DNA from: an uncultured Planctomycetia bacterium
Lineage (GTDB): Bacteria > Omnitrophota > Gorgyraeia > Duberdicusellales > 4484-171
Length of the DNA stretch: 64,000 nt
Direction: 5' to 3'
Assembly: GCA_964635565.1 (NCBI GenBank)
Contig: CAZWON010000006.1
Location: 10,837-74,836 of the forward strand
Of the stretch, positions 3,717 to 64,000 are shown piece by piece; positions within the stretch are counted from its first letter, which is position 1, and each line of letters opens with the position of its first letter. A program made the position numbers and the translations under genes. The notes beneath the pieces were generated by a model, which had not been told where the DNA came from, searched no databases, and saw only the letters and a list, made by a program, of their open reading frames with translations.

Positions 3717-4596
3717 CGTATTTTTCTCTTATTTTTTTAGAAATAAAAAACATTGTAAAAGATACTATTACTAAAATTATTCCCAAGATTAACCCTTCGG
3801 CTGCTGCTAAGCCTGCAATATTATGCCTGAGGTGGTCATAAATCACCATTACAGGCACAGTGGTAAGCCCCCCTGCCCCTCCAGTTAAAGCCAGAATCAT
3901 TGCAAAAGCCTGCATTGTCCCTAAAATAGTCAATACCACAACTAAAGTAATTACAGGCATAAGAAGAGGAAAAGTAATTCTTATAAAGCATTGCCATGCG
4001 CTAGCTCCATCAATACGCGCGGCTTCATAAAGCTGTTCAGGGATACTCTGTAAACCTGCCAATAAAATTACAAAAGCCCAACCAAACCCCTTCCAGCAAT
4101 GGACAAGAGCAGTTATAAGACGCACACGTTCGGTTCCTAACCAGCTTTCTGTCATAAAACCCAGTCCTATATTATGGAGTAAATGATTTAGCACATCTCT
4201 TCCTATAGGTTCTCCTGCTAAAAACTGTTTCATAAGAAGACCGATTATAATCTCAGAAAGCACAGGAAGAATAAAAAATACAATACGGTAAAACTTTCTT
4301 AACCTTATTATTTTATCTACTCCCAAAGCTAACATAAACGCTAGAATATTCTGAAAGGTTAACGCCCAAAAAGTAATAAAAGCACCATTATACATTGAAG
4401 ACCACCAGTCAGGGGAGGTAAAAACCACTTTAAAATTGCTCCAACCTATAAATTGAGGAGGAGAAATCAAGTCATTTTCTTGAAAACTGAGAATAAAAGT
4501 ATAGAAAAAAGGATAAACCCAAAAGATAGTAAAAATAAAAAGAGCGGGGATAATAAAAGAAAAATTTACTGTCTTCTCTTTAACAGCGAGGTTCAT
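3700..4596 (-). CDS. Carbohydrate ABC transporter permease (MalF/UgpA-like)
   Basis: EAA loop YEAARIDGASAWQCFIRITFPLL. Multi-TM protein. Confidence 0.85.
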   Translation of the reverse strand: MNLAVKEKTVNFSFIIPALFIFTIFWVYPFFYTFILSFQENDLISPPQFIGWSNFKVVFTSPDWWSSMYNGAFITFWALTFQNILAFMLALGVDKIIRLRKFYRIVFFILPVLSEIIIGLLMKQFLAGEPIGRDVLNHLLHNIGLGFMTESWLGTERVRLITALVHCWKGFGWAFVILLAGLQSIPEQLYEAARIDGASAWQCFIRITFPLLMPVITLVVVLTILGTMQAFAMILALTGGAGGLTTVPVMVIYDHLRHNIAGLAAAEGLILGIILVIVSFTMFFISKKIREKYGVLSS

Positions 4597-6246: not shown

Positions 6247-6930
6247 TTAGAATAACATTCTATGTAACTTAAGAAAATTCTTCATATCTTCTGGTAAATC
6301 TATCCTTATCTCTACTGTCTCTCTACTTATAGGATGAATAAAGCTTAAAAAAGAAGCATGTAAAGCAAGACGCTTAAAATCAACTCCCTTATATTTTTTT
6401 TCTTTAATAACAAAATCTTTCCTAAAAGCATATTTACGTTCTCCCAGGATAGGTGTTCTGCGTTTAGCCAGCTGAATTCTAAGCTGATTAGTTCTTCCTG
6501 TTAAGGGAATAAGTTTTATCAAACTGAACTCTTGAAAACTTTCTATAAGCTCATAGTATGCCTTGGCTCTCTTTCTTTTCTCGCCGAAACGCGCACCTTC
6601 CTTATCTAAAATATAATCATCAAAAAAACCTTTTTTGTTCTTCAAACTTCCTTTTATAAAAGCGAAATATTCTTTTTTAACTAACCTCTTTCTAAATTGT
6701 TCCATAATTTTCTTTTGAATATCTTTGTTTTTAGCATAAACAATCAAGCCTGTGGTCTCTCTATCTAAACGATGGCAGGGATAAACGGTCTCTTTCAATG
6801 CGCTCTCTAAAATAGAAGTTAAGGTATACTTTTCTCTTTTAGGGGAAGGATGAACCAATAGCTTTGCTCTCTTATTTATAACTAATACATATTCATCGTT
6901 AAATAATACTTCAAATGCTCTTTTAACCAC
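6247..6930 (-). CDS. RNA pseudouridine synthase, RluA family
   Basis: Catalytic motif HRLDRETTGLIVYAKN with the Asp. Length about 227 aa. Confidence 0.85.
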   Translation of the reverse strand: MVKRAFEVLFNDEYVLVINKRAKLLVHPSPKREKYTLTSILESALKETVYPCHRLDRETTGLIVYAKNKDIQKKIMEQFRKRLVKKEYFAFIKGSLKNKKGFFDDYILDKEGARFGEKRKRAKAYYELIESFQEFSLIKLIPLTGRTNQLRIQLAKRRTPILGERKYAFRKDFVIKEKKYKGVDFKRLALHASFLSFIHPISRETVEIRIDLPEDMKNFLKLHRMLF

Positions 6931-6936
6931 TTTTTA

Positions 6937-8505
6937 TTATTCCTTCTTTAAAAAAAGAAATTCTATTTCTTTTTTTAAATCTTTTTTTAAAATTTTCCCC
7001 GTGGCATTTTTAGGAAGGCTATCTTTTACAATCACTTTGAGAGGAACTTTATAAGAAGCAAGATTTGCCCGTAAATATTTAATAAGCTCTCTTGTATCTA
7101 TATTTTCTCCTACCACAAAAACAACAGGAACTTCTCCCCGATGAGGATGACTTATACCAACACAAGCTACTTCTTTAACATCGGGATGCTTATATATTAA
7201 TTCTTCAATTTCTCGAGGATACACATTAAGCCCACGGACATTAATCATCTCCTTCTTCCGTCCTTTAATATAAATATATCCTTCTCTATCAATCGAAGCC
7301 AAATCTCCAGTATAAAGCCACCCACCCCTTAAAACATTTTCTGTCTCCTTACCTAAACGGTAATATCCTTTCATAATACTGGGGCCTTTAACTAAGAGTT
7401 CGCCTACGCCCTTCGATAAACTCTTTCCCTCGTTATTCACAATTTTTACGCTTAAAGAATCTAAGGGTATTCCTACAGAAGATGGCTTTCTTTTTTTCAA
7501 AGGATTTAAAGAAACTACAGGAGAGGCCTCTGTTAAACCATAGCCTTCCAGAAGAGGCCTTTTAAATTTTTTTTCAAATTGCTTTAAAACATCCCTTGAT
7601 AATGCTGCTGCACCAGAAATATATACCCTTACAGGGTTAAAAAGTATTATTCCTATATGTTTATACCAAGGAATTCTTATCTGGGATAAAATATTATATA
7701 CAGAAGGAACTGCAACAAATACTGTAACTCTATTTTTAAATACTGCCCTCAATACCCTCTTAAAAGGCCGAATCGCTCGCATAAGAACAATCTTCGCTCC
7801 TTTATAAAAAGGAAGCAACATACACACTGTAGAAGCAAAAGAATGAAAAAGAGGCAAAATACACAAAAAAGAGTCCTTTTGTGTAACTCTTATAGCATAA
7901 GAACAATCTCTTATATTAGAAATGAGATTTCGGTGAGTTAAACATGCTCCCTTGGGACGACCAGTGGTACCAGAGGTATAAATTATTTCTGCAATATCAT
8001 CAGGTTTAAGCTTGTTTTTAAAAAAAGGACCGTCTTCTTTAAGAAGCTCATAAAAGTTCTTCACAGAAGCATCATTAGACCGGGGGACGCAAATAAGATA
8101 TTTAAGAGAACTGACGCGAGAAAGAATTACCTTAGATGCCTCTAGTTTATCAATAGATAGAATAAGAATAGTACATTTAGAATCTTCTATGATAAATTTA
8201 GCTTCTTCTCTTTTAAAAAGATTATTTATAGGAACAACTATTGCTCCCAGAGAAAGAATGGCAAAATAAGAATAGATGAATTCAGGACAATTAGGAAGCC
8301 ATAAGCATACCTTATCTTCTTTTCTTACTCCCAAATGATAAAGTGCATGAGAAAATCTCAACGATATTTCTCTTATCTTTCCATAAGTAACCTTTTTTGC
8401 TCCAAAAATAATAGTTTCTTTTTTAGAGAAAGTCTCAGTTATCTCATAAAACATCTCTACTAAGTTAGACATTTTCTTCTCTTTTATCTTCTTCTCCCAC
8501 CACAT
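6937..8505 (-). CDS. AMP-dependent synthetase/ligase (long-chain fatty acid--CoA ligase-like)
   Basis: AMP-binding motif YTSGTTGRPKG. Also YGLTE and the C-terminal lysine region GWLYTGDLASIDREGYIYIKGRKKE. Confidence 0.85.
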   Translation of the reverse strand: MWWEKKIKEKKMSNLVEMFYEITETFSKKETIIFGAKKVTYGKIREISLRFSHALYHLGVRKEDKVCLWLPNCPEFIYSYFAILSLGAIVVPINNLFKREEAKFIIEDSKCTILILSIDKLEASKVILSRVSSLKYLICVPRSNDASVKNFYELLKEDGPFFKNKLKPDDIAEIIYTSGTTGRPKGACLTHRNLISNIRDCSYAIRVTQKDSFLCILPLFHSFASTVCMLLPFYKGAKIVLMRAIRPFKRVLRAVFKNRVTVFVAVPSVYNILSQIRIPWYKHIGIILFNPVRVYISGAAALSRDVLKQFEKKFKRPLLEGYGLTEASPVVSLNPLKKRKPSSVGIPLDSLSVKIVNNEGKSLSKGVGELLVKGPSIMKGYYRLGKETENVLRGGWLYTGDLASIDREGYIYIKGRKKEMINVRGLNVYPREIEELIYKHPDVKEVACVGISHPHRGEVPVVFVVGENIDTRELIKYLRANLASYKVPLKVIVKDSLPKNATGKILKKDLKKEIEFLFLKKE

Positions 8506-8895: not shown

Positions 8896-9651
8896 TTATG
8901 GCAATGACAAAGTGAATCCATCATAGGCAAATTTTACCATAGGAAAATCCTTCCTTATCTTTCCTTCAATAATGTGGGGTTTAGCGCGAAGCATACTCAT
9001 TCCAAAATGGGTAAATATTGCAGTCTTCGGTTTTATTTCTTTTACCAACTTTAAAGCCTCATCTAAACAGAGATGGTCATAATCGCTTCGAGGCTGGTAA
9101 AAAACAACATTAATCACTAATACCGTAGAATCTTTATAAGCATCAATTAAATCGGAAAGATACTTTGTATCGGAGATAAAGGAAACTTTCTCTTTATCAA
9201 AACAAAACTTTAAACCATATGTTTCTACAGAATGCACATTCCTAAATGGGACAGAAAAATTAATATCTCCTATAGAATATTCGCCTTTTTTTATCACAAC
9301 TATCTTATCTAAGTAATTTTTTAAATAAGAAAAAACTACTCCTTCATTACCTACTGCATCAGAAGGAGCAAATAATATCCCTCTTTTGCGATATCCTCCC
9401 TCTGTCATCGCTTCAATCATTATATTAACATCTCCGGAATGATCGAGATGTTTATGAGTTAAAATAATAGCATCTAAATTAGTAGGGTCAAGATGGGGAC
9501 GGGTATGATTACACCGCACAATTGCCCCTGGACCAGGATCTATAATAAGATTGGTAGATTTATAATTTATCCAAACTCCTGCTGAGGAACGCAATTGTCT
9601 TATCATTACGAACCTTGCTCCTGCTGTTCCCAAAAACTTTATAAATCCCAT
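8896..9651 (-). CDS. MBL-fold metallo-hydrolase
   Basis: N-terminal FLGTAGA. HxHxDH motif THKHLDHSGD. Confidence 0.8.
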   Translation of the reverse strand: MGFIKFLGTAGARFVMIRQLRSSAGVWINYKSTNLIIDPGPGAIVRCNHTRPHLDPTNLDAIILTHKHLDHSGDVNIMIEAMTEGGYRKRGILFAPSDAVGNEGVVFSYLKNYLDKIVVIKKGEYSIGDINFSVPFRNVHSVETYGLKFCFDKEKVSFISDTKYLSDLIDAYKDSTVLVINVVFYQPRSDYDHLCLDEALKLVKEIKPKTAIFTHFGMSMLRAKPHIIEGKIRKDFPMVKFAYDGFTLSLP

Positions 9652-14645: not shown

Positions 14646-15791
14646 CTATCCTTTTACTCTCTTCTTCAATATATCAAAGGTCAAAGAAGCAATCATAAAA
14701 CCTTCATCTGTGGGAATAACTATAACTTTTGTTTTAGAAGATACCACCTTCTGGATACTTCTCTTAAGTGAGTTTATTAAATCAGGGTTATTCTCTCCTA
14801 TACCTGCAGTAAAACAGACAGCGTCTGCTCCTCCTAAAACCATATAATAGGCACCGATATACTTTTTAATTCGATACATAAACATCTCAAGGGCAAGCTG
14901 AGCAAGTTTATTACCTCTTTCTGCAGCTTTTTTTATTTCCCTTATGTCATTACTTATTTGGGAAACACCTAATAATCCACTTTTTTTATTCAGAAGTTCA
15001 TCTACCTTTTTAAGAGATAACTTCTCTTTTTCCATTAAATATAAGACTGCTGCTACATCAATATCTCCACAACGTGTTCCCATCATAAGACCTTCTAAGG
15101 GGGTAAATCCCATTGACGTATCAATAGACTTTCCTTTATCGATTGCTGTTATACTACAACCGTTGCCTAAATGGCAGGTTATAAGTTTCACTTTACTTAA
15201 TGGCTTCTTAAGAATACGAGCAGCTTGTTTTGCTACATATTGATGAGAGGTTCCGTGAAAACCATATTTTCTTATCTTATATTTTTTGTAGTATTTTAAA
15301 GGAAGGGCATACCTATGGGCATAATCAGGAATAGTTTGATGGAAAGCAGTATCAAATACAGCTACTTGTAAAACATTAGGTAAAGTATTAAGTGTTGCCT
15401 TAATACCCTCCAGATTAGCAGGATTATGCAAAGGAGCTATTTTTATACATTCTTTGATTTTTCTTATTACCTTTTTATCAATAACATGAGGCTCGTGAAA
15501 AGTCTCACCGCCATGAACGACTCTATGACCAATGGCTTTTATTTCACTGAGATGCTCAATAACCTTATTATCTATCAATTGGGAAAAAACTACCTTCATT
15601 CCCTCAGTATGAGTGGAAACACCTGAATCCTTTTCCCCAATCTTTTCTATAACTCCCCCTGCTAAAAGTTTACCGTGAGGGAAAAGATATAATTTATATT
15701 TAATAGAAGAACTCCCACAATTTATGGTAAGAATATGAGCATTAAGAGAAGTCTTTATGGTTGTTTTCTGTATTCTATTAAATCTCTTCAT
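14646..15791 (-). CDS. ackA: Acetate (propionate) kinase
   Basis: ILTINCGSSSIKYKLY signature. Adjacent to a phosphotransacetylase. Confidence 0.85.
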   Translation of the reverse strand: MKRFNRIQKTTIKTSLNAHILTINCGSSSIKYKLYLFPHGKLLAGGVIEKIGEKDSGVSTHTEGMKVVFSQLIDNKVIEHLSEIKAIGHRVVHGGETFHEPHVIDKKVIRKIKECIKIAPLHNPANLEGIKATLNTLPNVLQVAVFDTAFHQTIPDYAHRYALPLKYYKKYKIRKYGFHGTSHQYVAKQAARILKKPLSKVKLITCHLGNGCSITAIDKGKSIDTSMGFTPLEGLMMGTRCGDIDVAAVLYLMEKEKLSLKKVDELLNKKSGLLGVSQISNDIREIKKAAERGNKLAQLALEMFMYRIKKYIGAYYMVLGGADAVCFTAGIGENNPDLINSLKRSIQKVVSSKTKVIVIPTDEGFMIASLTFDILKKRVKG

Positions 15792-16737
15792 TGATAAAGC
15801 TTGTTTTCTGCGCTCTAATAACCGTAACTGCAGTACAATCTACAATATCATCTATACTACACCCACGAGAGAGGTCACTACAAGGTTGGGCAGTACCTAA
15901 AATTATAGGCCCTATTGCTCTTGCTTTTGCTAATCGTTCTGTAAGCTTATAGCAAATATTTCCTGCGTCAAGATTAGGGAAAATTAAAACATTGGCTCTA
16001 CCTGCCACTTCACTATCTGCAACTTTTCTTTTTGCCACTTCAGAAACTATTGCTGAATCCGCCTGAAGTTCACCATCAATCAAAAAACTATCATCTTTAG
16101 ACTTGGCAATTTCTACAGCATCTTTAACTTTATCTATCCATCTTCCCTCGGCACTACCTTTGGTAGAAAAACTTAACAAAGCTACACGAGGAGTAATATT
16201 TAGGACATCACGGGCAAACCTAGCTGCAGAAAGGGCAATTAAAGCTAACTGTTCGCTGGTAGGATAAGGAATTACTCCACAATCAGCATAAACAAAAAGA
16301 CCACTCTCTCCATAACTACAATCAGGTATAGCCATAACAAAACAACTGGAAACAATCCCATAACTTCTATCAATATTTAAACAATTTATTGCCGCTCTTA
16401 TAACATTTGATGTTGTAGAGATAGCACCAGCAACAAAACCATCCGCATATCCCAAACGTACCATCATCGCAGCATAATAAAGGGGATTCTCCATAATCTC
16501 CCTTGCTTCCTCAAATGTTACTCCTTTTACCTGTTTTCGTTCATAAAAAATATTAGCAAATTCCTCCTGTTTCTCTGGTTCAAGATTATCATGAGTTAAA
16601 AGTAGAGGAGAAGCTATATTTTCTCTCTTTATATATTCTACTGCTTTAACAATTCGCTCATCAGAAACCTCAGGAAAAATAATTTTCTTAGGATCTTGTT
16701 TCGCTCTTTTTCTTAACTCACTAATTATCTTCTCCAT
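15778..16737 (-). CDS. pta: Phosphate acetyl/butyryl-transferase
   Basis: Pta_PtaB-family length and blocks (GAISTTSNVIRAA, GELQADSA). Operon with ackA. Confidence 0.75.
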   Translation of the reverse strand: MEKIISELRKRAKQDPKKIIFPEVSDERIVKAVEYIKRENIASPLLLTHDNLEPEKQEEFANIFYERKQVKGVTFEEAREIMENPLYYAAMMVRLGYADGFVAGAISTTSNVIRAAINCLNIDRSYGIVSSCFVMAIPDCSYGESGLFVYADCGVIPYPTSEQLALIALSAARFARDVLNITPRVALLSFSTKGSAEGRWIDKVKDAVEIAKSKDDSFLIDGELQADSAIVSEVAKRKVADSEVAGRANVLIFPNLDAGNICYKLTERLAKARAIGPIILGTAQPCSDLSRGCSIDDIVDCTAVTVIRAQKTSFINEEI

Positions 16738-17707: not shown

Positions 17708-18789
17708 GAATACTAAGAATGTATATATTAAAAGATTTCCTCTCCTCTTTTATTTTTTCTCTTATGAGTCTTACTTTAGTAATGGTCTTAGGTAACTTAA
17801 AAAAAATATCTGATATGATCATCAGAAAGGGAATAAATATTACCGATGCTCTTAGAATATTCTCTCTATTTATTCCTTATATCTTAGGCTTTACTCTTCC
17901 TCTTGCTATCCTTATGGGAATTCTACTTACAATGGGCAGGATTATTGCCAATAACGAATTAATAGCAATAAATATTGCTGGTATTTCTCTTTTAAAAATC
18001 CTTGCAATTTTTATTATTGTCGCTATTATATTCAGTTTATTTCTTTTCATTCTCCATGATAAAGTTATTCCCTATTTCCATTATAGTTACCGAAGTACCC
18101 TAAAAAACCTTTATGCCAAAAATATAGTTGCTATTATTGAACCAGGAGTATACTTAGAGAATTTTAAGAATACTATTCTCTATGTAGACGATATCGCAGA
18201 TAATAAATTGAAAAATATCTATATATACGAGACAACTGAAAAGGGATTAAACCGTCTTACTTATGCCCGGAGAGGAGAGTTTGTTGTAGATAACAATAAG
18301 TTAACCATGCGTTTAGAAAAAGGCTTCAGAGATGAAATGAATCCGGGAGGGAAAAAAACACTCTACCGCTTAAACTTTAAAATATTTTTTATAGATCTTC
18401 CCATCCAGGAGAAAAAAAATAAAAATGTTGAAAAGAAGGCTTCTGATATGAACCTAAAAGAACTTAAGGAAAATATAAAATACTTAAGGAAATTAAATAT
18501 AAGTCCTACGGAATTACTTGCTGAATTATATAAAAGACTCAGTTTATCATTCTCACCGATTACTTTTGTAATTTTAGGCTTTGGAATATCCTTGATAGTA
18601 AAACACCGCGAGAAGTCAGTAAACTTTGGCATAGCAGTACTAATAGCAGGAGTTTATTATCTCCTTATTCTTCTCGGAGAAACCCTTGTTGATTATAATT
18701 ATCTACCACCGTTATTAGGAATGTGGCTCCCTAATCTTATTATAGTTACTATTGGAGGTCTATTAATAATTAGAAAATGCATATATTAG
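17704..18789 (+). CDS. lptF: LPS export permease LptF/LptG family
   Basis: MRILRMYILKDFLSSFIFSLMSLTLV start with YjgP/YjgQ topology. Overlaps comF by 4 nt. Confidence 0.75.
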   Translation: MRILRMYILKDFLSSFIFSLMSLTLVMVLGNLKKISDMIIRKGINITDALRIFSLFIPYILGFTLPLAILMGILLTMGRIIANNELIAINIAGISLLKILAIFIIVAIIFSLFLFILHDKVIPYFHYSYRSTLKNLYAKNIVAIIEPGVYLENFKNTILYVDDIADNKLKNIYIYETTEKGLNRLTYARRGEFVVDNNKLTMRLEKGFRDEMNPGGKKTLYRLNFKIFFIDLPIQEKKNKNVEKKASDMNLKELKENIKYLRKLNISPTELLAELYKRLSLSFSPITFVILGFGISLIVKHREKSVNFGIAVLIAGVYYLLILLGETLVDYNYLPPLLGMWLPNLIIVTIGGLLIIRKCIY

Positions 18790-19865: not shown

Positions 19866-19932
19866 CGGAGAGTTTAGCGGATAGGGATTAGTTTATTTTT
19901 AGCGGTTAGCGGATAGAAAAAGCTGTTGACTG
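19866..19932. repeat. Convergent intergenic spacer with TAGCGGATAG-type direct repeats
   Basis: The sequence agatagcggagagtttagcggataggg...tagcggttagcggatag lies between the lptG stop and the alr stop. The reverse complement of tagcggata recurs at 60650..60660. Confidence 0.5.
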
Positions 19933-21066: not shown

Positions 21067-21149
21067 GCTTACCGTAATTAACGAAAAAAGAATGTAAGTC
21101 TATAATGCCACTTTATTTAATAGTCTAAATTTTTTAGTTTTTAAATTTC

Positions 21150-21200
21150 TACTTTGATATAAGCTATGAACTATGAGATAATTTTCTATTGGTTAATCCC
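21150..21200. repeat. Copy of the intergenic box element AGCTATGAACTATGAGATAATTTTCTATTGGTTAA
   Basis: It shares an exact 16-mer, agctatgaactatgag, with 60574..60589. About 35 nt in total are near-identical. Located 108 nt upstream of the alr start. Confidence 0.7.
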
Positions 21201-21210
21201 TTTAATAATA

Positions 21211-31914: not shown

Positions 31915-31999
31915 TGTATCGTAAGGAACCAGCCGTCAGTGGTCTATAACTTCTTGAGGCGCATCGTTTGTAGTTTCTTATCTTTATAAATATAGGCCC

Positions 32000-32030
32000 A
32001 CCGCTAAGAGCTAATTTTCTATGCTCTAAC
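32000..32030. repeat. Copy of the GAGCTAATTTTCTAT box element between ispD and ispF
   Basis: The sequence gagctaattttctatgctctaac sits about 94 nt upstream of the ispF start. It is preceded by the ACCACTG...CAGTGGT inverted repeat at 31922..31955. Confidence 0.55.
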
Positions 32031-39767: not shown

Positions 39768-39844
39768 AATTTCCTCCTCTTACTTATTAAAAGTTAAAGA
39801 ATTAATAACCTGCATTTTATAGCCCTTAGTTTATAGTTTATATC

Positions 39845-39890
39845 TTAACGAGTTTAATATGGACAATGAACTAAAAGCTATAAGCTAATT
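39845..39890. repeat. Degenerate copy of the box element (AAGCTATAAGCTAATTTTTATTCC)
   Basis: Lies between the mcsB stop and the clpC start, about 105 nt upstream of the clpC start. Confidence 0.45.
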
Positions 39891-41433: not shown

Positions 41434-41560
41434 AATATATTCTTAACCTCCAAATAATTAATACTCCCTTTTAGCGCTATTGCTTCCTTGTGTATTGCGC
41501 CATTTTCGTATTGGGTCGTCGTAGAACGTAGTTGGTTATAAAACACACAAGGACACACCG

Positions 41561-52687: not shown

Positions 52688-52696
52688 CTATTCTCC

Positions 52697-52785
52697 TTCT
52701 TAGCTCATAGCTGTTAGCTCATAGCTCATATTTTTAAGCAAGGAAAGAGCTAAAGAATGAGCTATGAGCTATTCCATTATTCTTT
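52697..52785. repeat. Perfect 14-bp inverted repeat (AGCTCATAGCTCAT / ATGAGCTATGAGCT) plus box element between gspE and gspF
   Basis: Arms at 52716..52729 and 52757..52770 with a 27-nt loop. Followed by gagctattccattattc. A related element lies at 60470..60625. Confidence 0.75.
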
Positions 52786-52787
52786 TA

Positions 52788-54946: not shown

Positions 54947-55579
54947 TCACCGCCTCCTACTTCCTGCCTTATTCTTTCTTATCCAATTAAGCAGAGCTTC
55001 TGCATAATCATCTCTACCAAGAGCTCTTAAACGTTTTACTTCTTTTAGGGCACTTGCCTTATCTCCACTATTAAAATAGGCTCCTCCTAAAGCTACATAA
55101 GCATTAAAATAATCGGGCTTAAGCATTGTGCATTTCTTCAATGACTGAACCGCTTTATTATAATCTTTCATACTCATATAAACAAGACCTAAATGATAAT
55201 ATAACAAGGGATTTTTTGGCTGAATAATTCTTGCTTTCATAAAATATCTGATTGCTTCTTCATAATCTTTTTTAGAAGCGAAAATTAACGCTAAGTTATA
55301 ATAAGCACTAAAACTTTTAGGATTAAGTTTTATAACTTTCTTATAACAACTAATTGCTTTGTTATAATCTTTTTTTAGCCCGTAAATAAGCCCTAACTGT
55401 AAATAAGCAATACTATGGGAAGGGTCAATTTTTATAATTTCTTTATATTCTCTTATAGCAGAATCATAATCCTGTTTTTTAACATAAGCATTAGCCTTTT
55501 CGAACCTATCAGCAATCTCGCCGCAAAAAGCATTAAATGAGAATAAAAATATTAGTAAAAATAAATTTATTAACTTCAT
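54947..55579 (-). CDS. TPR-repeat protein with signal peptide (PilF/PilW-like candidate)
   Basis: Signal peptide ending FNAFC. Five to six TPR units (AIREYKEIIKIDPSHSIAYLQLGLIY and so on). Directly upstream of gspE. Confidence 0.65.
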   Translation of the reverse strand: MKLINLFLLIFLFSFNAFCGEIADRFEKANAYVKKQDYDSAIREYKEIIKIDPSHSIAYLQLGLIYGLKKDYNKAISCYKKVIKLNPKSFSAYYNLALIFASKKDYEEAIRYFMKARIIQPKNPLLYYHLGLVYMSMKDYNKAVQSLKKCTMLKPDYFNAYVALGGAYFNSGDKASALKEVKRLRALGRDDYAEALLNWIRKNKAGSRRR

Positions 55580-55606
55580 TATTCTCTCCTCCTTATAGGT
55601 ATTCCA

Positions 55607-57013
<1,407 letters not shown>

Positions 57014-57027
57014 TTAATAACCAATTT

Positions 57028-57090
57028 ATAGCTTATGGTTTTTTAGTAGAAACTAAAAAGTTAAACCATAAGCTAAATTTTATTTGCTAT
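57028..57090. repeat. 13-bp perfect hairpin (TAGCTTATGGTTT / AAACCATAAGCTA) plus box element between atpG and atpD
   Basis: Arms at 57029..57041 and 57063..57075. Followed by aattttatttgctatttact, which is shared with 60590..60612. Confidence 0.7.
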
Positions 57091-57104
57091 TTACTACAAG
57101 TATT

Positions 57105-57959
57105 TTACTTCTGTGCTTTCCGCTCAAAAATCATTCTTGCTGCAAATAATTCTCTCATACTTCTATCGGTTAATTCATGACGGAGACGAAAATATTTATA
57201 TTTCAGTTTCTCATCCAGTTCTTCAATTTTATGAGTGCAATCTTCTAAATGCATAAATCGAGCAGCAAACTCAGCCAATCTACTCATCATAAGAATTTCA
57301 TATATTCTTTTTACTATCCAGAGATAAATTAAATATTCCACTACTTGCTCTATATAAGACTCCCAAACAAATCCATAAATATCTATTTGTTTGTTACCCT
57401 CTTTAAGGTGACCACAAGGTAGAAGGGTTTCTATCTCTACTCGCTGAACAGCTAAAGAGTACGCTTTAGGATAAATTATCTTAACTTTACCTATACTACC
57501 TTTTATCACTTCTTTTAATATATAACTCTGAAGAGCTACTGCCTGTTCACCAACATAGTCTTCTTTAATTCCTTCCATATATACACAATTTATCCCTCTT
57601 TCTCGCACATAGATTCTTCCTCTCTCTCCTACAACAATAAGCCTTCCTTTCTGTTTTGATAGCTCAATAAATGCTTTATTTATTACCTGCATATTAAGTC
57701 CCCCTAAAAGCCCTGCGTCAGAAGTGATAGCAATAACTCCTAAAAGGTTGCTTGAAGGTGTAATAAAGGGATGGGATATATCTTTTAAATCTATACTGCC
57801 AAGAAATTCTTCTACTACCCGAGAAAACTTCTCAAAAGGATGAACTTTTCCTTCAAAAGCATAAAATTGAGAAATGGCGATCCCTTTAAGAACTTTAAGA
57901 AGCTCGGCTAACCCTTTGTAGAAATCCCTATCCCTTTTTACATCAGAAATAAAAGCCAT
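57105..57959 (-). CDS. atpG: F-type ATP synthase gamma subunit (divergent)
   Basis: Length 284 aa. C-terminal helix LAEFAARFMHLEDCTHKIEEL aligns with the gamma EHAARMxAM block. Sits between alpha and beta. Confidence 0.7.
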   Translation of the reverse strand: MAFISDVKRDRDFYKGLAELLKVLKGIAISQFYAFEGKVHPFEKFSRVVEEFLGSIDLKDISHPFITPSSNLLGVIAITSDAGLLGGLNMQVINKAFIELSKQKGRLIVVGERGRIYVRERGINCVYMEGIKEDYVGEQAVALQSYILKEVIKGSIGKVKIIYPKAYSLAVQRVEIETLLPCGHLKEGNKQIDIYGFVWESYIEQVVEYLIYLWIVKRIYEILMMSRLAEFAARFMHLEDCTHKIEELDEKLKYKYFRLRHELTDRSMRELFAARMIFERKAQK

Positions 57960-57973
57960 TTATTATTATTTAC

Positions 57974-59461
57974 CTAACCCTTCTTACTAAAATACTTCTG
58001 TAAGAAAGAATATAATACTTCCTGAATTTTATCAGTAACAATCTTCTGTTCTCGTAATCTAGAAATAACTTCAGGATATTCTTTCCTAAGAGCATACAGA
58101 CAATACTGCTTAAAATCCCTGATTTCTGAAGAAGAAAGATTATCCAGTATTCCCAAACTTAAGGCATAAAGATAAATTATCTGCTCCTCAATCTCAATAG
58201 GAGCATTTTTAGGCTGGATAAGAAGATGAGTTATTATTTCTCCTCTTTTTAAAGAACGTTCCGCCTCTTTAGAAAGACTGGTAGCACGTAGCTGTGTCAT
58301 CTGAAGAAGCTCTTTGTACTGAAGATACCCCAAACGCAAGTTTCTACTTAAAGCTTTCATTGCTGGCCATTGTGCTTTACTGCCAATACGGGAGACAGAA
58401 AGACCTAAATCAATTGCTGGTCTAAATCCTTTATTAAAGAGTGAGGTGCTAAAATATATTTGGCCATCGGTCATAGAAATAATATTTGTAGAAATATATC
58501 CGGTGACATCCCCATGTTGAATCTCTACAATAGGGAAAAAAGTCATTGAACCCCCTCCTAATTCAGGGCGAAGTTGACCTGCTCTTTCCATAAGTTGAGA
58601 ATGAATATAGAAAATGTCTCCCGGATAAGCTTCTCTACCTGGCGCTCTTCCTAAGAGCAAAGATATCTGCCTGTAGACCCAGGCATGACGGGTCAAATCA
58701 TCAAAAACAACAAGAACATCTTTTCCTTTATGCATAAAATATTCTCCCAGCATGCAAGCGGTATAAGGAGCAAGGTATTGTTCTCCTGCTGAAGTAGAAG
58801 CAACACCGCTTACTACAATTGTATAGGAAATAGCATCTTTTTCTTTTAGAATATCCAGAATCTTAACTAAATTAGAATAAGGTTTGCCAATGCAACAATA
58901 TATACACACTACATTTTTACCTTTCTGATTAAGAATAGTATCTATAGCTACGGTGGTTTTACCTGTTAATCTATCTCCAATAAGTAGCTGGCGCTGGCCT
59001 TTACCAATGGGGATAGTAGCATCTATGGTAAGTATTCCTGTTTCAAGAGTTCTATCTACAGGAACCCTATCTAATACCCCAGGTGCATCTCTAAAAACAG
59101 GATATAATCTATCTGTTTTAATCTCTCCCAACCCGTCCTGAGGCTGACAAAGACTGTCTACTACTCTACCTAAGAAAGCTTCTCCCACAGGAAGCGATAG
59201 AAACTGACCTTTATTATAAACCTCTTCTCCTGCTTTTATATCTACAGCAGAACCTAAAACAAGAATCTGAACTTCATCTTCAACAAATCCAATGACTATG
59301 CCTTTAAGACCATTAAAAAATTCAACCATCTGACCATTAACACAACTAGGTATACCACGAGCAAAAACAATAAATTTCTGGACTGATTTTATAGTCCCTA
59401 CTTCACGAATATCTACAGAATAATTAATATTTTGGTTTAAGTTATTTATCCCTTCTTCCAT
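57974..59461 (-). CDS. atpA: F-type ATP synthase alpha subunit
   Basis: P-loop GDRLTGKTTVAIDTILNQ. Blocks LAPYTACMLGEYF, YRQISLLLGRAPGREAYPGD. Confidence 0.9.
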   Translation of the reverse strand: MEEGINNLNQNINYSVDIREVGTIKSVQKFIVFARGIPSCVNGQMVEFFNGLKGIVIGFVEDEVQILVLGSAVDIKAGEEVYNKGQFLSLPVGEAFLGRVVDSLCQPQDGLGEIKTDRLYPVFRDAPGVLDRVPVDRTLETGILTIDATIPIGKGQRQLLIGDRLTGKTTVAIDTILNQKGKNVVCIYCCIGKPYSNLVKILDILKEKDAISYTIVVSGVASTSAGEQYLAPYTACMLGEYFMHKGKDVLVVFDDLTRHAWVYRQISLLLGRAPGREAYPGDIFYIHSQLMERAGQLRPELGGGSMTFFPIVEIQHGDVTGYISTNIISMTDGQIYFSTSLFNKGFRPAIDLGLSVSRIGSKAQWPAMKALSRNLRLGYLQYKELLQMTQLRATSLSKEAERSLKRGEIITHLLIQPKNAPIEIEEQIIYLYALSLGILDNLSSSEIRDFKQYCLYALRKEYPEVISRLREQKIVTDKIQEVLYSFLQKYFSKKG

Positions 59462-59467
59462 TATTAT

Positions 59468-60193
59468 TTAAACTTCATTTATTAGCTGGCGTGCTCCTTC
59501 CTTTATCTTCCACTTCAAACTAGCATCAATTACTAAACTTCCTATATTAATTAATAAACCAGACAATAAAGAAACGTCTTTTTCCTTTATAAACTCTATG
59601 TTCTTGCCTATTTTTTCCTTTAACTTAGAAGAAATAACATCAAACTTACTATCATCAAGGTCAAAAGCGCTTTTTATTACTGCAAAGGAGGCATCTACAT
59701 TTTGAGAAATGCTCAATTTATCAATCCCTGCATGAATAAATTCATCCACTAAATGATTATGTAATATTAAACGGACCTCTTGGCTAAGTGCTTTATCCAA
59801 TAAACTAACTGCTTCCTCTATTGCCTTTTCTTTGATTTTTCTTTCCATTTCCAAAATAAGATTCTGGCGAGCTTTTTCTGCCTGTTTTATCATTTCTTCA
59901 CTTTCCTGGCGGGCCTTCTCAATAATCTTCTCTTTCTGGGCGTTAGCTGATTGCTGAATTGCTTGCTTAATCTTTTCTGCTTCTTCTTTTGCTTCAGAAA
60001 TTTTCTTCTGATACATCTGGTTTATCTCATCTAAACGTTTATCTACCTCTTCCTGTTTTTTCATGTAATCTCTGGTAAGAACATCTAAATGCTGTGTAGC
60101 AGAAGTTATGTTTTTGGATAAAACTTTTTTAAGCAAGAATACAAGAAAAGCAAATATAATAACCTGAAATACTATTAAAACTACAAGCAACAT
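59468..60193 (-). CDS. atpF: F-type ATP synthase subunit b fused to a delta (OSCP) C-terminal-domain-like region
   Basis: N-terminal TM and charged coiled coil (b-like). The C-terminal approximately 100 aa (DVSLLSGLLINIGSLVIDASLKWKI) resemble the delta C-terminal domain. No separate delta gene is present. Confidence 0.6.
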   Translation of the reverse strand: MLLVVLIVFQVIIFAFLVFLLKKVLSKNITSATQHLDVLTRDYMKKQEEVDKRLDEINQMYQKKISEAKEEAEKIKQAIQQSANAQKEKIIEKARQESEEMIKQAEKARQNLILEMERKIKEKAIEEAVSLLDKALSQEVRLILHNHLVDEFIHAGIDKLSISQNVDASFAVIKSAFDLDDSKFDVISSKLKEKIGKNIEFIKEKDVSLLSGLLINIGSLVIDASLKWKIKEGARQLINEV

Positions 60194-60251
60194 CTACTCC
60201 TCCTATTTTATTTTCATTGATACCTAATTACTTATATATAGGGTATAATCT

Positions 60252-60467
60252 TTAAGGAGTAAGAATCTGAAAAACAATCAGCATCGCAATAATAGCTAAG
60301 CTCTGGGCAAATACAAGACCTACCACCATTGCAGTAAAAATCTTAGGAGCAGCAGAGGGATTTCTCCCTAAGGCATTGATACTGGCAAATATTCCTGCAG
60401 CAAAAACAGCACACGGTCCTAAAATGCATAACCCAAAAATTACAATCAGTGCTAAATTTCTACTCAT
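60252..60467 (-). CDS. atpE: F-type ATP synthase c subunit, with Gln at the conserved carboxylate position
   Basis: Two-helix hairpin. The ALGRNP loop aligns with the RQP/RNP loop. The residue 20 positions after the loop Arg is Q55 (CAG at 60305..60303), where E/D is expected. Confidence 0.75.
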   Translation of the reverse strand: MSRNLALIVIFGLCILGPCAVFAAGIFASINALGRNPSAAPKIFTAMVVGLVFAQSLAIIAMLIVFQILTP

Positions 60468-60469
60468 AT

Positions 60470-60625
60470 TATTAGCTCAGGGCTCTTAGCTCTTGGCTCA
60501 TAGAGTAGCTCTTAGCTCATAACTCTTAGTTCCTCGCTCTTCGTTCTTGTTTAATATCAACTATGAGCTAACAGCTATGAACTATGAGCTAATTTCTATT
60601 CGCTAAACGCTATTTACTCTACCCC
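60470..60625. repeat. Composite intergenic repeat element (imperfect long hairpin plus GAGCTAATTTCTATTCGCTAAACGCTATTTACT box) between atpC and atpE
   Basis: AGCTCTTAGCTCAT ... ATGAGCTAACAGCT inverted arms. The 30-mer gagctaacagctatgaactatgagctaa nearly matches the reverse complement of 52701..52730. Box copies occur at five other loci. Confidence 0.75.
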
Positions 60626-60686
60626 ACTATCCTATACACGATACGCTCAACGCACAGCGAGATATGGTTTATCCGCTATACGCTCT

Positions 60687-60920
60687 TTACGGTTCTTCCA
60701 CAATTATTGTCGCAACGTTCTTCTCTAATTTTACCACACCCCTCTTAATTATAAATGAATTTTTATTATCAATACTGATATGGCCTCTTATTAGACGAGA
60801 GATGATATTTTTATGAAAAGGGGTAATTTCAAATACCCCCTGCTCACCAGGTAAAATAATACTCTTTGCCTTCCCTTCAAAAATTGTCTTCTGAGGGGAA
60901 ATAATCATAAATTCTAACAT
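60687..60920 (-). CDS. atpC: F-type ATP synthase epsilon subunit, N-terminal beta-sandwich domain only
   Basis: MLEFMIISPQKTIFEGKAKSIILPGEQGVFEITPFH matches the epsilon N-terminal domain. At 77 aa it lacks the C-terminal helical hairpin. Confidence 0.7.
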   Translation of the reverse strand: MLEFMIISPQKTIFEGKAKSIILPGEQGVFEITPFHKNIISRLIRGHISIDNKNSFIIKRGVVKLEKNVATIIVEEP

Positions 60921-60922
60921 CT

Positions 60923-61726
60923 TTATTCTTTAATATCGGTAGATTCGGAAGACTCTTCTTCCCCAAAAGAAATTTTTTTTGCTTCTGAAATTATATCATG
61001 AGTTGCCCGGGAAGAACGGTACCAAGTAAAGAAAAACACCAAAGAAAGTAACCCAATAAAAATAATAATGGAAAAAATTACTATCCAAGTAGCAGTTTTT
61101 GTAGGCGAGAGAGTTTTAAACTTACTCTCAGCAAGAATATCAGGAGTAAGAGGACCAGTCTTTGTCTCTAAAAGTTTCTCCATGTCGCTAATCTCATCTT
61201 TAAGGCGGGAAAGGCTCTTAATATTGGCACGATACACACCAATATGCTGAGAACGACTTATGGTATCATCGCTCTGGGATTTTATTATTTCCGCAATGAG
61301 AGAATTGGCACGCTCAGAAAGTTTCTTCACTTCATCATAATGGGAAGAGCCTTTAAATGATACTAAAAGTTTATCAATCCTTCTCTTTACTCCTTCTATT
61401 TCTTCAGAAGGAATGAGCCAGATATCCTCTATTTCTACTTCAAAAATTTTCGTCTGGCGGGGCTTTAATATTACTCCATTATCATATACATAATAGAGAG
61501 ATTTCTGGGAATCAAAATCTAACTTAAGCCCTCCTAAGTCTATAATGTTTTTGGGCTTTACCTCCTCAGGTAAATAAACTTTTACCGGTACAAACTGGGT
61601 TTTTACAGAGGAAGGATTTATGGCAACAATTCGAAAACGGATATTATCACCCCAGCAAAAAAAAGGAAATAATATCCCTATTATAAATAAAATATTAAGC
61701 ATTTTTTTTTGAAAAGAAAAAAACAT
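60923..61726 (-). CDS. Hypothetical membrane-anchored protein (signal peptide plus C-terminal TM)
   Basis: N-terminal hydrophobic leader. C-terminal TM WIVIFSIIIFIGLLSLVFFF followed by an acidic tail. No recognisable family. Confidence 0.45.
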   Translation of the reverse strand: MFFSFQKKMLNILFIIGILFPFFCWGDNIRFRIVAINPSSVKTQFVPVKVYLPEEVKPKNIIDLGGLKLDFDSQKSLYYVYDNGVILKPRQTKIFEVEIEDIWLIPSEEIEGVKRRIDKLLVSFKGSSHYDEVKKLSERANSLIAEIIKSQSDDTISRSQHIGVYRANIKSLSRLKDEISDMEKLLETKTGPLTPDILAESKFKTLSPTKTATWIVIFSIIIFIGLLSLVFFFTWYRSSRATHDIISEAKKISFGEEESSESTDIKE

Positions 61727-61826: not shown

Positions 61827-64000
61827 CTACTGTAAAACTGTTGAAACAATGGGTGCGTCCATGCCACCGAATTTAGCCTCAAACAGAGCCTGAAGAATTC
61901 TTAAAACACCCTCTATAGTATCTGTTTTCTTCCTAATTGCCTTAATTGTAGGGGACTCACTGAGTTTCTCTTCAAGTATCTCACTAATATCATAACCCTG
62001 ACCAGCTGCTAACTCAGTTAATTTATCTGTAATCTCGTTTAAAGTGCTAGTAACTATAGGGCTTGCTCCTTGGTTTGCAATAATCGAAGGAAGTTCTTCT
62101 ACAGATTCCTGTAAATTCTTTAAAGTAATTGCAATACTTACTCCGTCTTCGCTTCCAATAGTAGCTTCTAATGCTTTTACTAAATCTAAAGTTTTCTTAG
62201 CAGCTCGTTCAGCCTCAGGAGCAGCAGAGGCTAACCCTGCAATAGTAGTTATAGACATTTCCTCTACTGAACCAGAACCTGTAACTAATCCTCCAGTAGT
62301 CTGTTCACTAACAGTATAGGTATAAGCCTTTCCAGGGGTAAAGCGTGTATCTGCATTAAATTCAAAAATATATAAACCAGGAGTTGTCTCCGTCATTACC
62401 CAATCCTTTACAATAGATTGGTTATCCCAACTGTATATATTCACCATAGGATAAAGTCCGCTGGGTCCTTGAACCTGCAAAGTAATGGCTTCTCCGCTTA
62501 AAGCAGGATTAGGTGATACTGTTGCTTTCCAAGAATATTTCTTAGCTGTTGCTTCTAATTCCTCACCTGCAGCTACTGCCTGTTCCGCACCTGCTTGGAG
62601 TTGCTCAATAGCCTCTGTGGTGCGTTCTTCAAAACTTGTTAAGGTTTCATCTACAGCGCTAACCATTTCATCGGTCTTTGTCTCAATAATAGTTTTTTGC
62701 TCTTCCATCTTCTGGTCAATAAGGTCAGTCTGGTCTTGTAGTGTCTGTTGTATTTCTGCATTCACCTCTGATATAGGTTTATCCAAAACTGCATTTACAG
62801 TATCCTGAACATCCTGTAATTTTGTTTCCGCAGTAATAGTAAAGGAATCTGGCGTTTTAAAGTGGGCACCACTGGCATTAGTAATATCTGTAATAGTTGT
62901 ATATACTTTCCCTGCAATAAGAGTTGTAGGATTCCATATAGAACTAAAGAAACCTGCAGGATCAGGGCTTGTATCAACTAAATGGGCAATTTCTTGTTCA
63001 GTTTCTGGGTCATAGATATATACATCTGCCTGAATACCACCACTTACTACAAATCCATCTCGTTCAAGCCAGCTACTTACACTGAGAGTATCTGTCGTTG
63101 GGTCGTAGGCAAAATCAGAGTAAGCCCGCCAAATATGGATAGCTGTTGTTTCCATAAAAATAGTCTCGTTCTCTGTCCCTACTAAAGGCTCATCTCTATC
63201 CAAAAGGAAACTAATCTGCTTATCACCATAACCAGTCTTTGACCACACGAGCGTCCAGAAACCATAAGGAAGCTCAACAGTACAAGGTGAACCTAAAGGT
63301 GCGCCAGGATTACCTGGCATCTCTGAGGTCTGCCAAACATCCCCTTTATCGGAAGAGCCATCAACGGTAAGTTGAGATAAGTTCTCATTAGTTAAAAGAT
63401 CCCTTATGTTAAAAGTCACAGAATAATAGTCTATAATAAAGTTATCATCGGAGGTATCGTTAACAGTAACATCACGAATATCAGAAACTCTCACCTTTAC
63501 AGTGGTTGAACGATCATCAGGAATTGTCCAAGCATAAGAATTAGGGGAAATCGTATTATCATAGGAAGAAACAATAGTATGAAGATCGGTATTAAAATTA
63601 TCTTTAGAATACTCAATATTTACTAAAGGAATTGAACCTTGTGTAGTTTCCCACGTAATATTGTGTTCTTCTCTTGTAACCCACCGTTCTCCACCATTAG
63701 GAGAAGTAATATGTAAGATTCCTCTCACAATAGAACAATCACTATCAGAGGCATCAAAAGCATCAGAATCAGTTGCACTCATCACTCTTACTCTAATTGT
63801 CTCAATCCTACTCTCTCCTTGAGGAGGAGCATTAGGAACTTTCCAGATATAACTTCCTGTATTAGGGGTTGAAGAAACAATGGCATAATCAAAAGTCAAT
63901 CCACTATCTTTAGAATAATCTAATCTTACATTATCTACGGTTCCTACACAACTCCAACTAACTGTGTAATCCTCACCTACAGTAAGTTCTTCTCCGCCAT
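61827..64000 (-). CDS. Large Ser/Thr/Asp-rich surface or secreted repeat protein, 5'-truncated by the window edge
   Basis: The track start at 63899 is a TTG. Own reading shows the frame stays open to 64000. Repeated YSKD..T.....N.....Y.W.IP units. A central Q/E-rich coiled-coil segment. Confidence 0.5.
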   Translation of the reverse strand, partial: GGEELTVGEDYTVSWSCVGTVDNVRLDYSKDSGLTFDYAIVSSTPNTGSYIWKVPNAPPQGESRIETIRVRVMSATDSDAFDASDSDCSIVRGILHITSPNGGERWVTREEHNITWETTQGSIPLVNIEYSKDNFNTDLHTIVSSYDNTISPNSYAWTIPDDRSTTVKVRVSDIRDVTVNDTSDDNFIIDYYSVTFNIRDLLTNENLSQLTVDGSSDKGDVWQTSEMPGNPGAPLGSPCTVELPYGFWTLVWSKTGYGDKQISFLLDRDEPLVGTENETIFMETTAIHIWRAYSDFAYDPTTDTLSVSSWLERDGFVVSGGIQADVYIYDPETEQEIAHLVDTSPDPAGFFSSIWNPTTLIAGKVYTTITDITNASGAHFKTPDSFTITAETKLQDVQDTVNAVLDKPISEVNAEIQQTLQDQTDLIDQKMEEQKTIIETKTDEMVSAVDETLTSFEERTTEAIEQLQAGAEQAVAAGEELEATAKKYSWKATVSPNPALSGEAITLQVQGPSGLYPMVNIYSWDNQSIVKDWVMTETTPGLYIFEFNADTRFTPGKAYTYTVSEQTTGGLVTGSGSVEEMSITTIAGLASAAPEAERAAKKTLDLVKALEATIGSEDGVSIAITLKNLQESVEELPSIIANQGASPIVTSTLNEITDKLTELAAGQGYDISEILEEKLSESPTIKAIRKKTDTIEGVLRILQALFEAKFGGMDAPIVSTVLQ

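Follow-up and report, generated by a model that had tools for sequence, protein, structure and literature searches.

Six spacers between co-directional genes in a 64-kb window of metagenomic DNA, which lies within an 84.7-kb contig (European Nucleotide Archive ERZ1742239 NODE_197), carry four complete and two partial copies of a family of extragenic palindromes made of heptanucleotide arrays. The array is the primary feature of this family and the hairpin a frequent arrangement of two arrays, since several heptamer-rich spacers of two relatives (loci L002 and L009) are not significantly structured. We favour, at a probability of roughly 0.5, a reading in which the copies are dispersed palindromes free of open reading frames (ORFs) that resemble rRNA intervening sequences (IVSs), repetitive extragenic palindromic (REP) elements and short tandemly repeated repetitive sequences (STRRs), are co-transcribed in operons, are predicted to act probably on mRNA processing or decay, and are kept largely as selfish or near-neutral DNA. 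A first-pass annotation of the window had picked out the six loci as hairpins followed by a conserved box ahead of gene starts. Its description of an extragenic family beyond any coding sequence, like REP elements or miniature inverted-repeat transposable elements (MITEs), agrees with our results; its regulatory reading is largely unsupported, and it had overlooked the 7-nt periodicity, the arrays in other Omnitrophota and on the contigs of other bacteria, and the link to genes of the PF05635 family.

That the family is non-random was evidenced by the string AGCTCATAGCTCAT, which at up to three mismatches has 23 matches in the window where 7.5 are expected, a number reached by none of 100 shuffles; the matches concentrate at 21159, 39866, 52702 and 60474-60590. 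The longer strings reported earlier as common to separate loci were recovered as well. The 16-mer AGCTATGAACTATGAG is found exactly at 21162 and 60573 (0.05 expected), and the segment around 60560 is indeed nearly the reverse complement of 52701..52730, with 31 of 35 positions identical between 60553-60587 and the reverse complement of 52699-52733, the exact 20-mer CTATGAGCTAACAGCTATGA included. The 10-mer GCTATTTACT is present at 57086 and 60609, slightly displaced from where it had been reported, but with 6922 recurring 10-mers in the window its sharing carries no information.

What the loci share is a tandem heptanucleotide, TAGCTCA (complement TGAGCTA), together with decayed variants such as TAGCGNN and TAGAAAT; units of the second arm read TGAGCTA or AAGAGCT. 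Tandem Repeats Finder (TRF) called arrays of period 7 at 52701-52730, 52757-52772, 60482-60541, 60561-60591 and 39827-39842. Autocorrelation pooled over the intergenic DNA of the window peaked at lags 7, 14 and 21 (0.341, 0.316 and 0.308, against ~0.285), coding DNA showing period 3 only, and in a 28-nt sliding window periodic stretches were nearly exclusive to lag 7 among lags 5-11. The pattern (TAGN4)x3 occurs 12 times where 1.36 matches are expected, and all 12 fall in the spacers, which make up ~4% of the window. Stop codons stand in all reading frames of the elements, in both arms, and a reading as small ORFs was dropped on that account. A search of the whole window at Rfam gathering thresholds returned no match, so that no known RNA family explains the loci; neither tRNA, tmRNA nor rRNA was found in the window.

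The box, which had been put forward as a conserved motif at a fairly constant distance from the downstream start codon, represents the outermost, decayed units of one array, adjoining the upstream stop codon. On the sense strand it reads as the heptamers AGTAAAT AGCGTTT AGCGAAT AGAAATT AGCTCAT. As an independent motif GAGCTAATTTTCTAT is not enriched in the window (9 matches at up to three mismatches, 8.3 expected), and exact or near-exact copies are limited to 32008, 21175 and, once a 1-nt deletion is allowed, 60586. In five of the six loci the upstream stop and the box are separated by -9 to 28 nt, and the distance from the box to the downstream start ranges from 61 to 118 nt. The common orientation ascribed to all copies means little for palindromes, and of the TAG-phased arrays the longer one occupies the sense strand in one element (60561-60612) and the antisense strand in another (52701-52724).

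Hairpins that beat dinucleotide shuffles were found at four of the loci (60468-60686, 57002-57104, 52688-52787 and 39768-39884; z -2.6 to -5.0), with stems of ~15 to 45 bp and loops of 4-30 nt. The remaining two, 31915-32025 and 21067-21210, gave no fold above shuffles (z +0.6 and +0.8); with only two to four units and no inverted partner, they are half-elements rather than the full hairpins that had been described. In 10 of the 13 spacers that measure at least 98 nt the sense strand has the more stable fold, and we considered this asymmetry, through G-U pairing, as a mark of selection at the RNA level. We rejected it, as z under dinucleotide shuffles does not differ between the strands (-4.26 and -4.21, for instance, at 60468-60686) and the raw excess comes from the G+U-rich composition of the sense strand. 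The elements are confined to spacers and symmetric at the DNA level. Sequestration of the ribosome-binding site or translational coupling was rejected too: the Shine-Dalgarno sequence is outside the stem in gspE/gspF and atpG/atpD, and at atpC/atpE the stem base is 60 nt from the upstream stop.

The coordinates of the individual elements, and of part of the gene-bearing cassettes discussed below, are collected in Table 1. In the atpC-like/atpE spacer the heptamer phase runs nearly from end to end on the sense strand, and the series after the loop reads AAGAGTT ATGAGCT AAGAGCT ... AAGAGCT AAGAGCC CTGAGCT AATAATATG. This largest element has a minimum free energy (MFE) of -72.3 kcal/mol (z -4.3), six overlapping (TAGN4)x3 matches, a TRF period of 7, and autocorrelation of 0.55 at lag 7 and 0.51 at lag 14 against 0.23 at other lags.

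Table 1. Heptamer-array elements of the window and PF05635 genes lying between inverted arrays on other contigs (window positions unless a locus number is given)
Feature	Position	Strand	Description
atpC-like/atpE spacer, largest element	60474..60612	(-)	Long imperfect palindrome; 5' arm (60612-60553, sense) TAGCGTT TAGCGAA TAGAAAT TAGCTCA TAGTTCA TAGCTGT TAGCTCA TAGTTGA; 3' arm (60547-60474) a (WAGAGCT/ATGAGCT)n array stopping 6 nt short of the atpE ATG; box at 60586-60618, decayed units of the 5' arm
Second, smaller stem	60649..60684	(-)	Directly 3' of the atpC-like stop; GAGCGTATAGCGGAT...ATCTCGCTGTGCGTT, in the MFE structure of 60468-60686; includes AGCGTAT/AGCGGAT units
atpG/atpD palindrome	57030..57075	(-)	AGCTTATGGTTT...AAACCATAAGCT, inner stem TTTTTAGT/ACTAAAAA; z -4.75 to -4.95; preceded on the sense strand by TAG-phased units (57095-57068) TAGTAAA TAGCAAA TAAAATT TAGCTTA
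gspE/gspF palindrome	52699..52771	(-)	15-bp perfect stem, z -2.6 to -3.65, called by TRF; sense 5' arm TAGCTCATAGCTCAT (52771-52757), then 27-nt loop; 3' array ATGAGCT ATGAGCT AACAGCT ATGAGCT AAG (52729-52699), ending at the AAGGAG ribosome-binding site
mcsB/clpC palindrome	39817..39883	(-)	z -2.8; (TAGN4)x3 on both strands (39820 and 39871); 5' arm TAGCTTATAGCTTTTAGTTCAT, beginning at the mcsB TAG stop (39885-39887); 3' arm ATAAACTATAAACTAAGGGCTATAA
ispD/ispF half-element	32008..32030	(-)	Directly after the ispD stop; TAG AGCA TAGAAAAT TAGCTCT TAGCGG; exact box match; no inverted partner; z +0.56
tsaB-like/alr half-element	21159..21189	(-)	22 nt past the tsaB-like stop; ATAGAAAAT TATCTCA TAGTTCA TAGCTTA T; 16-mer in common with 60573-60588; no inverted partner; z +0.84
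Convergent lptG/alr gap, additional related locus	19875..19916	(+)	(TAGN4)x3 matches; lag-7 autocorrelation 0.45; arrays of AGCGG type, TAGCGGA TAGGGAT TAG...TAGCGGT TAGCGGA TAG
PF05635 genes in array contigs	L070 2028-2399; L075 636-1019; L122 1762-2121		In the loop of inverted arrays
Cyanobacterial PF05635 gene	L146 1501-1860		In the loop of an inverted heptamer-array stem

Three further stretches of this DNA belong beside these elements. The convergent alr/lptG gap is also heptameric in a distant relative, L015 (1043-1085; 54% GspF identity), but of CTCTACT type against the AGCGGTT type of the window. On the same contig, ~1.9 kb beyond window position 1, a 721-nt intergenic region holds a heptamer hairpin (L008 14813-14891) with AATTTCT/AGAAATT units, and the AGAAATT unit recurs in the box. 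Ahead of the gene that precedes mcsB, the spacer (41434-41560) has an imperfect palindrome separate from these, GTGTCCTTGTGTG...CACAAGGAAGCA, together with heptamers phased on CTAC (CAACTAC GTTCTAC GACGACC).

Pfam supports the gene names that had been given to the flanks, with calls for ATP-synt_DE_N, ATP-synt gamma and beta, T2SSE and T2SSF, ATP:guanido phosphotransferase and ClpC, IspD and YgbB, and TsaB-like and Alr. Because the elements lie inside runs of co-directional genes and have no sense-strand terminator features, the mRNA of these operons must contain them, and there they are predicted to fold into stems of ~15 to 45 bp. REP elements stabilise upstream mRNA, and RNase III cuts the stems of Correia elements. 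Long double-stranded stems in polycistronic transcripts would most likely be RNase III cleavage sites or exonuclease barriers, through which sections of the operon mRNA may be separated or stabilised in the manner of REP, enterobacterial repetitive intergenic consensus (ERIC) and Correia elements. A role in RNA processing or stabilisation is plausible, and the elements would probably be maintained largely as selfish or near-neutral DNA.

We compared these spacers with those of relatives. The window has ~33% GC, with nearly all genes on the minus strand, and its source, judged by the nearest relatives in genome collections, is a Candidatus Omnitrophota metagenome-assembled genome (MAG): AtpG identity is 75-79% to two MAGs labelled 'uncultured Planctomycetia' and 45% to four labelled Omnitrophota, and the named sources among GspF homologues are likewise Omnitrophota or Omnitrophica. 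The atp-gsp synteny is preserved in L002, L009 and L011. In the gspE/gspF spacer the window, L002 and L009 all have arms of AGCTCAT type, with differing unit numbers and loops; between L002 and L009, at 86-88% DNA identity, the length of one array changes by exactly a single 7-nt unit, and larger indels also occur. The atpG/atpD spacer measures 103 nt in the window, 130 in L002, 161 in L009 and 9 in L011, and the spacer between atpD and the next gene 27 nt in the window, 219 in L002 and 146 in L009. Arrays therefore change by gain or loss of 7-nt units, and entire elements are present in some relatives and absent from others. As strings of 16-20 nt with the same variant units are found in more than one spacer, the sequences argue that copies have spread from site to site rather than arising separately. 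The dominant units are specific to lineages, GTATCGC/GCGATAC in L003 and L011, ATATCGC and TAGTTNA in L005, and TAGGTTN/AACCTAN in L007; L013, L015, L004 and L006 have few arrays or none. In the two distant Omnitrophota MAGs L005 and L007, heptamer arrays or hairpins lie at 14694-14803, 16027-16095 and 18106-18161 of the former and at 1980-2090, 3498-3580, 4680-4763, 7048-7088 and 9446-9484 of the latter.

The unit is found well beyond this lineage. We scanned Joint Genome Institute metagenome contigs for GAGCTAWGAGCTAWGAGCTA, i.e. (GAGCTAW)3, and the matches listed, to which all counts of metagenome arrays refer, comprise at least 120 contigs (L016-L135; 657 kb together) of 35-73% GC, median 58%, where by a rough estimate a few would be expected by chance. 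Among the matches listed, the (GAGCTAA/GAGCTAT)n arrays have 3-28 units. Their orientation was first tried with naive ORF calls, which were too noisy in high-GC contigs, and was redone with a filter on GC at third codon positions (GC3). Among the arrays that could be placed against the filtered gene calls, 41 of 43 are intergenic: 20 sense and 9 antisense between co-directional genes, 9 in convergent gaps and 3 in divergent ones, which is a weak sense bias. The array is within 150 nt of a contig end in 33 of 123 cases, suggesting that heptamer arrays break assemblies. Arrays sometimes end right at start codons, for example ahead of an rpsS-like gene in L094.

PF05635 is known as the '23S rRNA intervening sequence protein' family, whose members are four-helix bundles related to bAvd, the accessory protein of diversity-generating retroelements. 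We found genes of this family enclosed by heptamer arrays. In L011, which like L013 was picked through gspF/GspF homology and independently of repeats, two PF05635 genes (3627-4076 and 6482-6841) are inserted in the atp operon, each in the loop of inverted heptamer arrays: the first pair reads GTATCTC GTATCTC GTACCGC GTATCGC ... GCGATAC GCACGAC GCGATAC GAGATAC, and in the second a CCAAAT-type array faces an ATTTGG-type array. The PF05635 gene of L013 (1227-1601) is bracketed in like manner by CGAAATT units. Jackhmmer and Pfam searches of the at least 120 array-selected contigs identified PF05635 genes in L062, L070, L075 and L122, each between inverted AGCT-type arrays, and the units of the L075 cassette are practically identical to those of the window. 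The L122 protein has its close homologues in cyanobacteria (L136-L147), where the genes are likewise bracketed, with an AGCT-type unit. The arm-to-arm duplex gave z of -4.3 to -8.2 in seven of nine cassettes; in the other two the 110-nt segment taken missed the upstream array. The association of PF05635 genes with arrays was described neither in the papers returned by our literature searches nor in those on the heptamer repeats of Nostoc and Beggiatoaceae.

The 23S rRNA IVS of Coxiella has an S23p ORF in its loop and a 28-bp terminal-repeat stem that is cut by RNase III (PMC4990558). Heptamer stems enclosing a PF05635 gene share, by sequence, the architecture of 23S rRNA IVSs. The slot between atpD and the next gene exists in three states, empty in the window, with ORF-less arrays in L002 and L009, and with arrays plus an ORF in L011 and L012, and its 5' edge is homologous between the two filled states. 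From this likeness we infer that the window copies may be the ORF-less form of the kind of element that encloses PF05635 genes. As tblastn at E<=1 detects no PF05635 gene on the contig, the link of the window elements to the cassettes rests on shared unit type, slots and architecture. We hold it as a tentative and rather doubtful extension that the ORF-less copies of the window may represent an empty or miniaturised version of a class of which our literature searches turned up no account, inverted heptamer stems with a PF05635 gene in the loop, an IVS-like class that would colonise intercistronic and intergenic spacers of Omnitrophota, cyanobacteria and others and be excised from transcripts by RNase III.

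Several observations weigh against our reading of the window elements as transcribed palindromes, or against their kinship with the cassettes. The greater stability of the sense strand (e.g. -72 against -52 kcal/mol) vanishes when composition is controlled, which leaves selection on RNA rather than DNA unsupported. No significant hairpin forms at two of the six loci or in several heptamer-rich spacers of L002 and L009 (z about -0.5), and an inverted partner lies within 200 nt in only ~15% of the metagenome arrays among the matches listed; the essential feature may be the array rather than the stem. With tblastn at E<=1 there was no PF05635 homologue in the window, in L001 and L008, which are stretches of the same 84.7-kb contig, or in L002 and L009. 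The Pfam lists of L001 and L008, covering about half of the contig, contain no transposase family, and no search was aimed at Y1 transposases. No target-site duplication was evident at the flanks of 52699-52771 or in the empty and filled atpD/next slots.

It is also conceivable, if unlikely, that the arrays are mutational by-products, namely heptanucleotide microsatellites expanded by slippage in unconstrained spacers, with occasional inverted duplication and neither function nor mobility. The indel of one unit between L002 and L009, the presence or absence of elements among close relatives, the many arrays that have no inverted partner and a structural signal that is not strand-specific are all consistent with such an origin. 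It fits poorly with the 16-20-nt strings of identical variant units common to different spacers of one genome, with the dominant unit that each lineage has of its own, with the recurrence of the AGCT-type unit across contigs of 35-73% GC and with the fixed architecture in which arrays bracket PF05635 genes; the near-exclusive 7-nt periodicity is unexplained by slippage alone.

We consider it improbable that the arrays are platforms for a single-strand nucleic-acid-binding protein (Csp or S1-like, one per ~7 nt) that tunes translation initiation downstream, as was proposed for the TAACTGA repeats of Beggiatoaceae (MacGregor 2015, PMC4679880). In that precedent arrays run up to start codons, ending 1 nt before them with few ribosome-binding sites, and CspB is noted to bind one molecule per heptamer (PMC4679880). 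In the window (GAGCTAW)n reaches within a few nucleotides of the atpE ATG, and atpE has no obvious Shine-Dalgarno sequence, as is also the case in L002; among the matches listed, a start codon lies within 21 nt of the end in 12 of the 20 sense metagenome arrays, which outnumber the 9 antisense ones. Yet this orientation bias is weak, convergent gaps hold arrays in the window too and 9 of 41 metagenome arrays among the matches listed, half of the array material stands next to the upstream stop rather than the start, and in the window most arrays are tied up in palindromes, where single-stranded sites would be concealed.

The first-pass annotation had proposed that the elements terminate antisense transcription, and as intrinsic terminators of that kind, or as bidirectional insulators, we regard them as very improbable. 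One observation speaks for the proposal: plus-strand T-rich tails (ATTTCTAT, AATTTTAT and ATTTTTAT) follow three of the four hairpins against a background of 22.6% (our own count; binomial ~0.04), and such tails are confined to this antisense strand, the sense-strand hairpin tails being AAUAAUAUG, AUAAAUUGG, GAAGGAGAA and AAAAUGCAGG. The support is weak. The T-rich tail complements the array's own TAGAAAAT unit, and no comparable tails accompany the elements of relatives built on other units (GTATCGC, CCAATNA). A consensus terminator scan called none of the loci on either strand, with totals not above shuffles. Intrinsic terminators have a GC-rich stem, a short loop and a U-tract on the transcribed strand, whereas the stems here are AT-rich with large loops or bulges of 20-30 nt; the one canonical terminator of the contig (L008 16768-16802), a GC-rich stem followed by T7, is unlike the elements, and equivalent stems enclose PF05635 genes. 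That the elements are internal promoters or transcription-factor operators for the downstream gene, which their position upstream of genes and the chance of one repeated motif being an operator had invited, is hardly credible: a consensus scan found no sense-strand sigma-70-like (-35/-10) site in any element, promoter-like matches do not exceed shuffles (66 vs 74 and 72 vs 76), the distance to the start varies over 61-118 nt, the flanking genes are functionally unrelated, and the elements are missing from the same gene pairs in relatives. The elements thus appear to be neither promoters nor sense-strand terminators.

Returning to dispersed, co-transcribed palindromes as the preferred reading, in their behaviour they are nearest to REP, ERIC and Correia palindromes and to IVS stems, and in their construction they are like STRR and TAACTGA repeats; the defining features of no family are fully present. 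STRRs were reportedly described in cyanobacteria by Mazel et al. in 1990. Contiguous heptamer repeats have been described in Nostoc PCC 7120 (bioRxiv 10.1101/2022.06.06.494920). Like these, the window elements consist of tandem 7-nt units in intergenic DNA, near start codons or promoters and probably in many copies per genome, and window-type AGCT arrays are present on the cyanobacterial contigs L122 and L136-L147. Unlike them, they have an Omnitrophota host, other dominant units, and arrays that are mostly paired in inverted orientation as hairpins inside operons. TAACTGA repeats occur in Beggiatoaceae, Cyanobacteria and Bacteroidetes in 2-43 copies, nearly always intergenic and with a patchy phylogenetic distribution (MacGregor 2015, PMC4679880), and have stop codons in three frames and strain differences in 7-nt steps (PMC4679880). 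The intergenic position, the stop codons, the 7-nt steps and the patchy distribution are also traits of the window arrays, as is an array end that is often just before a start codon with no clear ribosome-binding site. The head-to-tail 7-nt period and the intergenic confinement of STRR and TAACTGA arrays are both found here, but the units are TAGCTCA/TGAGCTA and TAGCGNN instead of the canonical STRR1-3 or TAACTGA, and the host is neither cyanobacterial nor of the Beggiatoaceae. TAACTGA sets are direct repeats, only 1 of 170 being inverted, whereas the window elements are palindromes in which half of the array material adjoins the upstream stop.

REP elements and their mosaic form (bacterial interspersed mosaic elements, BIMEs), ERIC and the Neisseria Correia elements are, like those of the window, imperfect palindromes dispersed over spacers, intercistronic ones included, that are part of mRNAs and vary between relatives. 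The window holds four significant palindromes and three part-copies in 64 kb, in keeping with short dispersed palindromes of the REP/BIME kind. REP/BIME have a conserved GTAG-type head and an associated RAYT (Y1 transposase) gene; the heads in the window read ATAG or TTAG, and its arms differ from REP, ERIC and Correia in being made of tandem 7-nt units. MITEs combine terminal inverted repeats with a target-site duplication and a cognate transposase, and inverted arms are present here. The likeness to the 23S rRNA IVSs of Coxiella and Leptospira (PMC4990558) lies in a long inverted-repeat stem, which both the window (~15 to 45 bp) and the cassettes have, and in the PF05635 ORF in the loop in L011, L013, L070, L075, L122 and L146. 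The differences are that the sites here are intercistronic or intergenic rather than helix 45 of 23S rRNA, that the stems are heptamer arrays, and that the window copies are ORF-less. Literature searches returned no paper with these repeat strings and none on repeats in Omnitrophota.

Other repeats and genes were observed in passing. L007 has a further dispersed palindrome family of CCAATNA...ATTGGGA type (AATCCCAATTACCAATGACCAATTGGGATTTGG) in four spacers within 12 kb. A 193-nt indel at the 3' end of gspE and in the spacer distinguishes L011 (9492-9684) from L012 (junction 2947/2948), two contigs of ~99.5% identity, and this spacer contains tandem ~40-nt hairpin modules (GAAATATGT-hairpin-GAAATT), a repeat type distinct from the heptamers. 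The F-type ATPase cluster of the window (54947-61726) is unusual: a 77-aa gene for the epsilon N-domain only comes first, followed by a 71-aa c-like subunit that has no Pfam match, and a fused b-delta protein (PF00430 and PF00213), with alpha, gamma and beta coming next; the cluster lacks a gene for the a subunit. Its neighbours are a 267-aa protein with no Pfam match and a tetratricopeptide repeat protein, and type II secretion/type IV pilus genes come directly after. A giant gene of 4010 codons extends from window 61827-63899 onward (L001 1-5175), almost to the end of the contig.

Intergenic heptanucleotide repeats have no accepted function or origin. Our results add that heptamer repeats are common in some lineages of Omnitrophota, a phylum for which our literature searches found no prior description of them, that a single AGCT-centred unit turns up across contigs of 35-73% GC, and that arrays form a stem around PF05635 genes in the nine cassettes examined. 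Recognising these elements avoids their misannotation as promoters, terminators or small RNAs and explains contig breaks in MAGs. The PF05635 link opens the repeats and the protein family alike to concrete tests, of RNase III cleavage and of PF05635 protein binding to the stems. If the class of IVS-like elements proposed above is real, it would join the cyanobacterial heptamer repeats, the PF05635 family and rRNA intervening sequences in one system.

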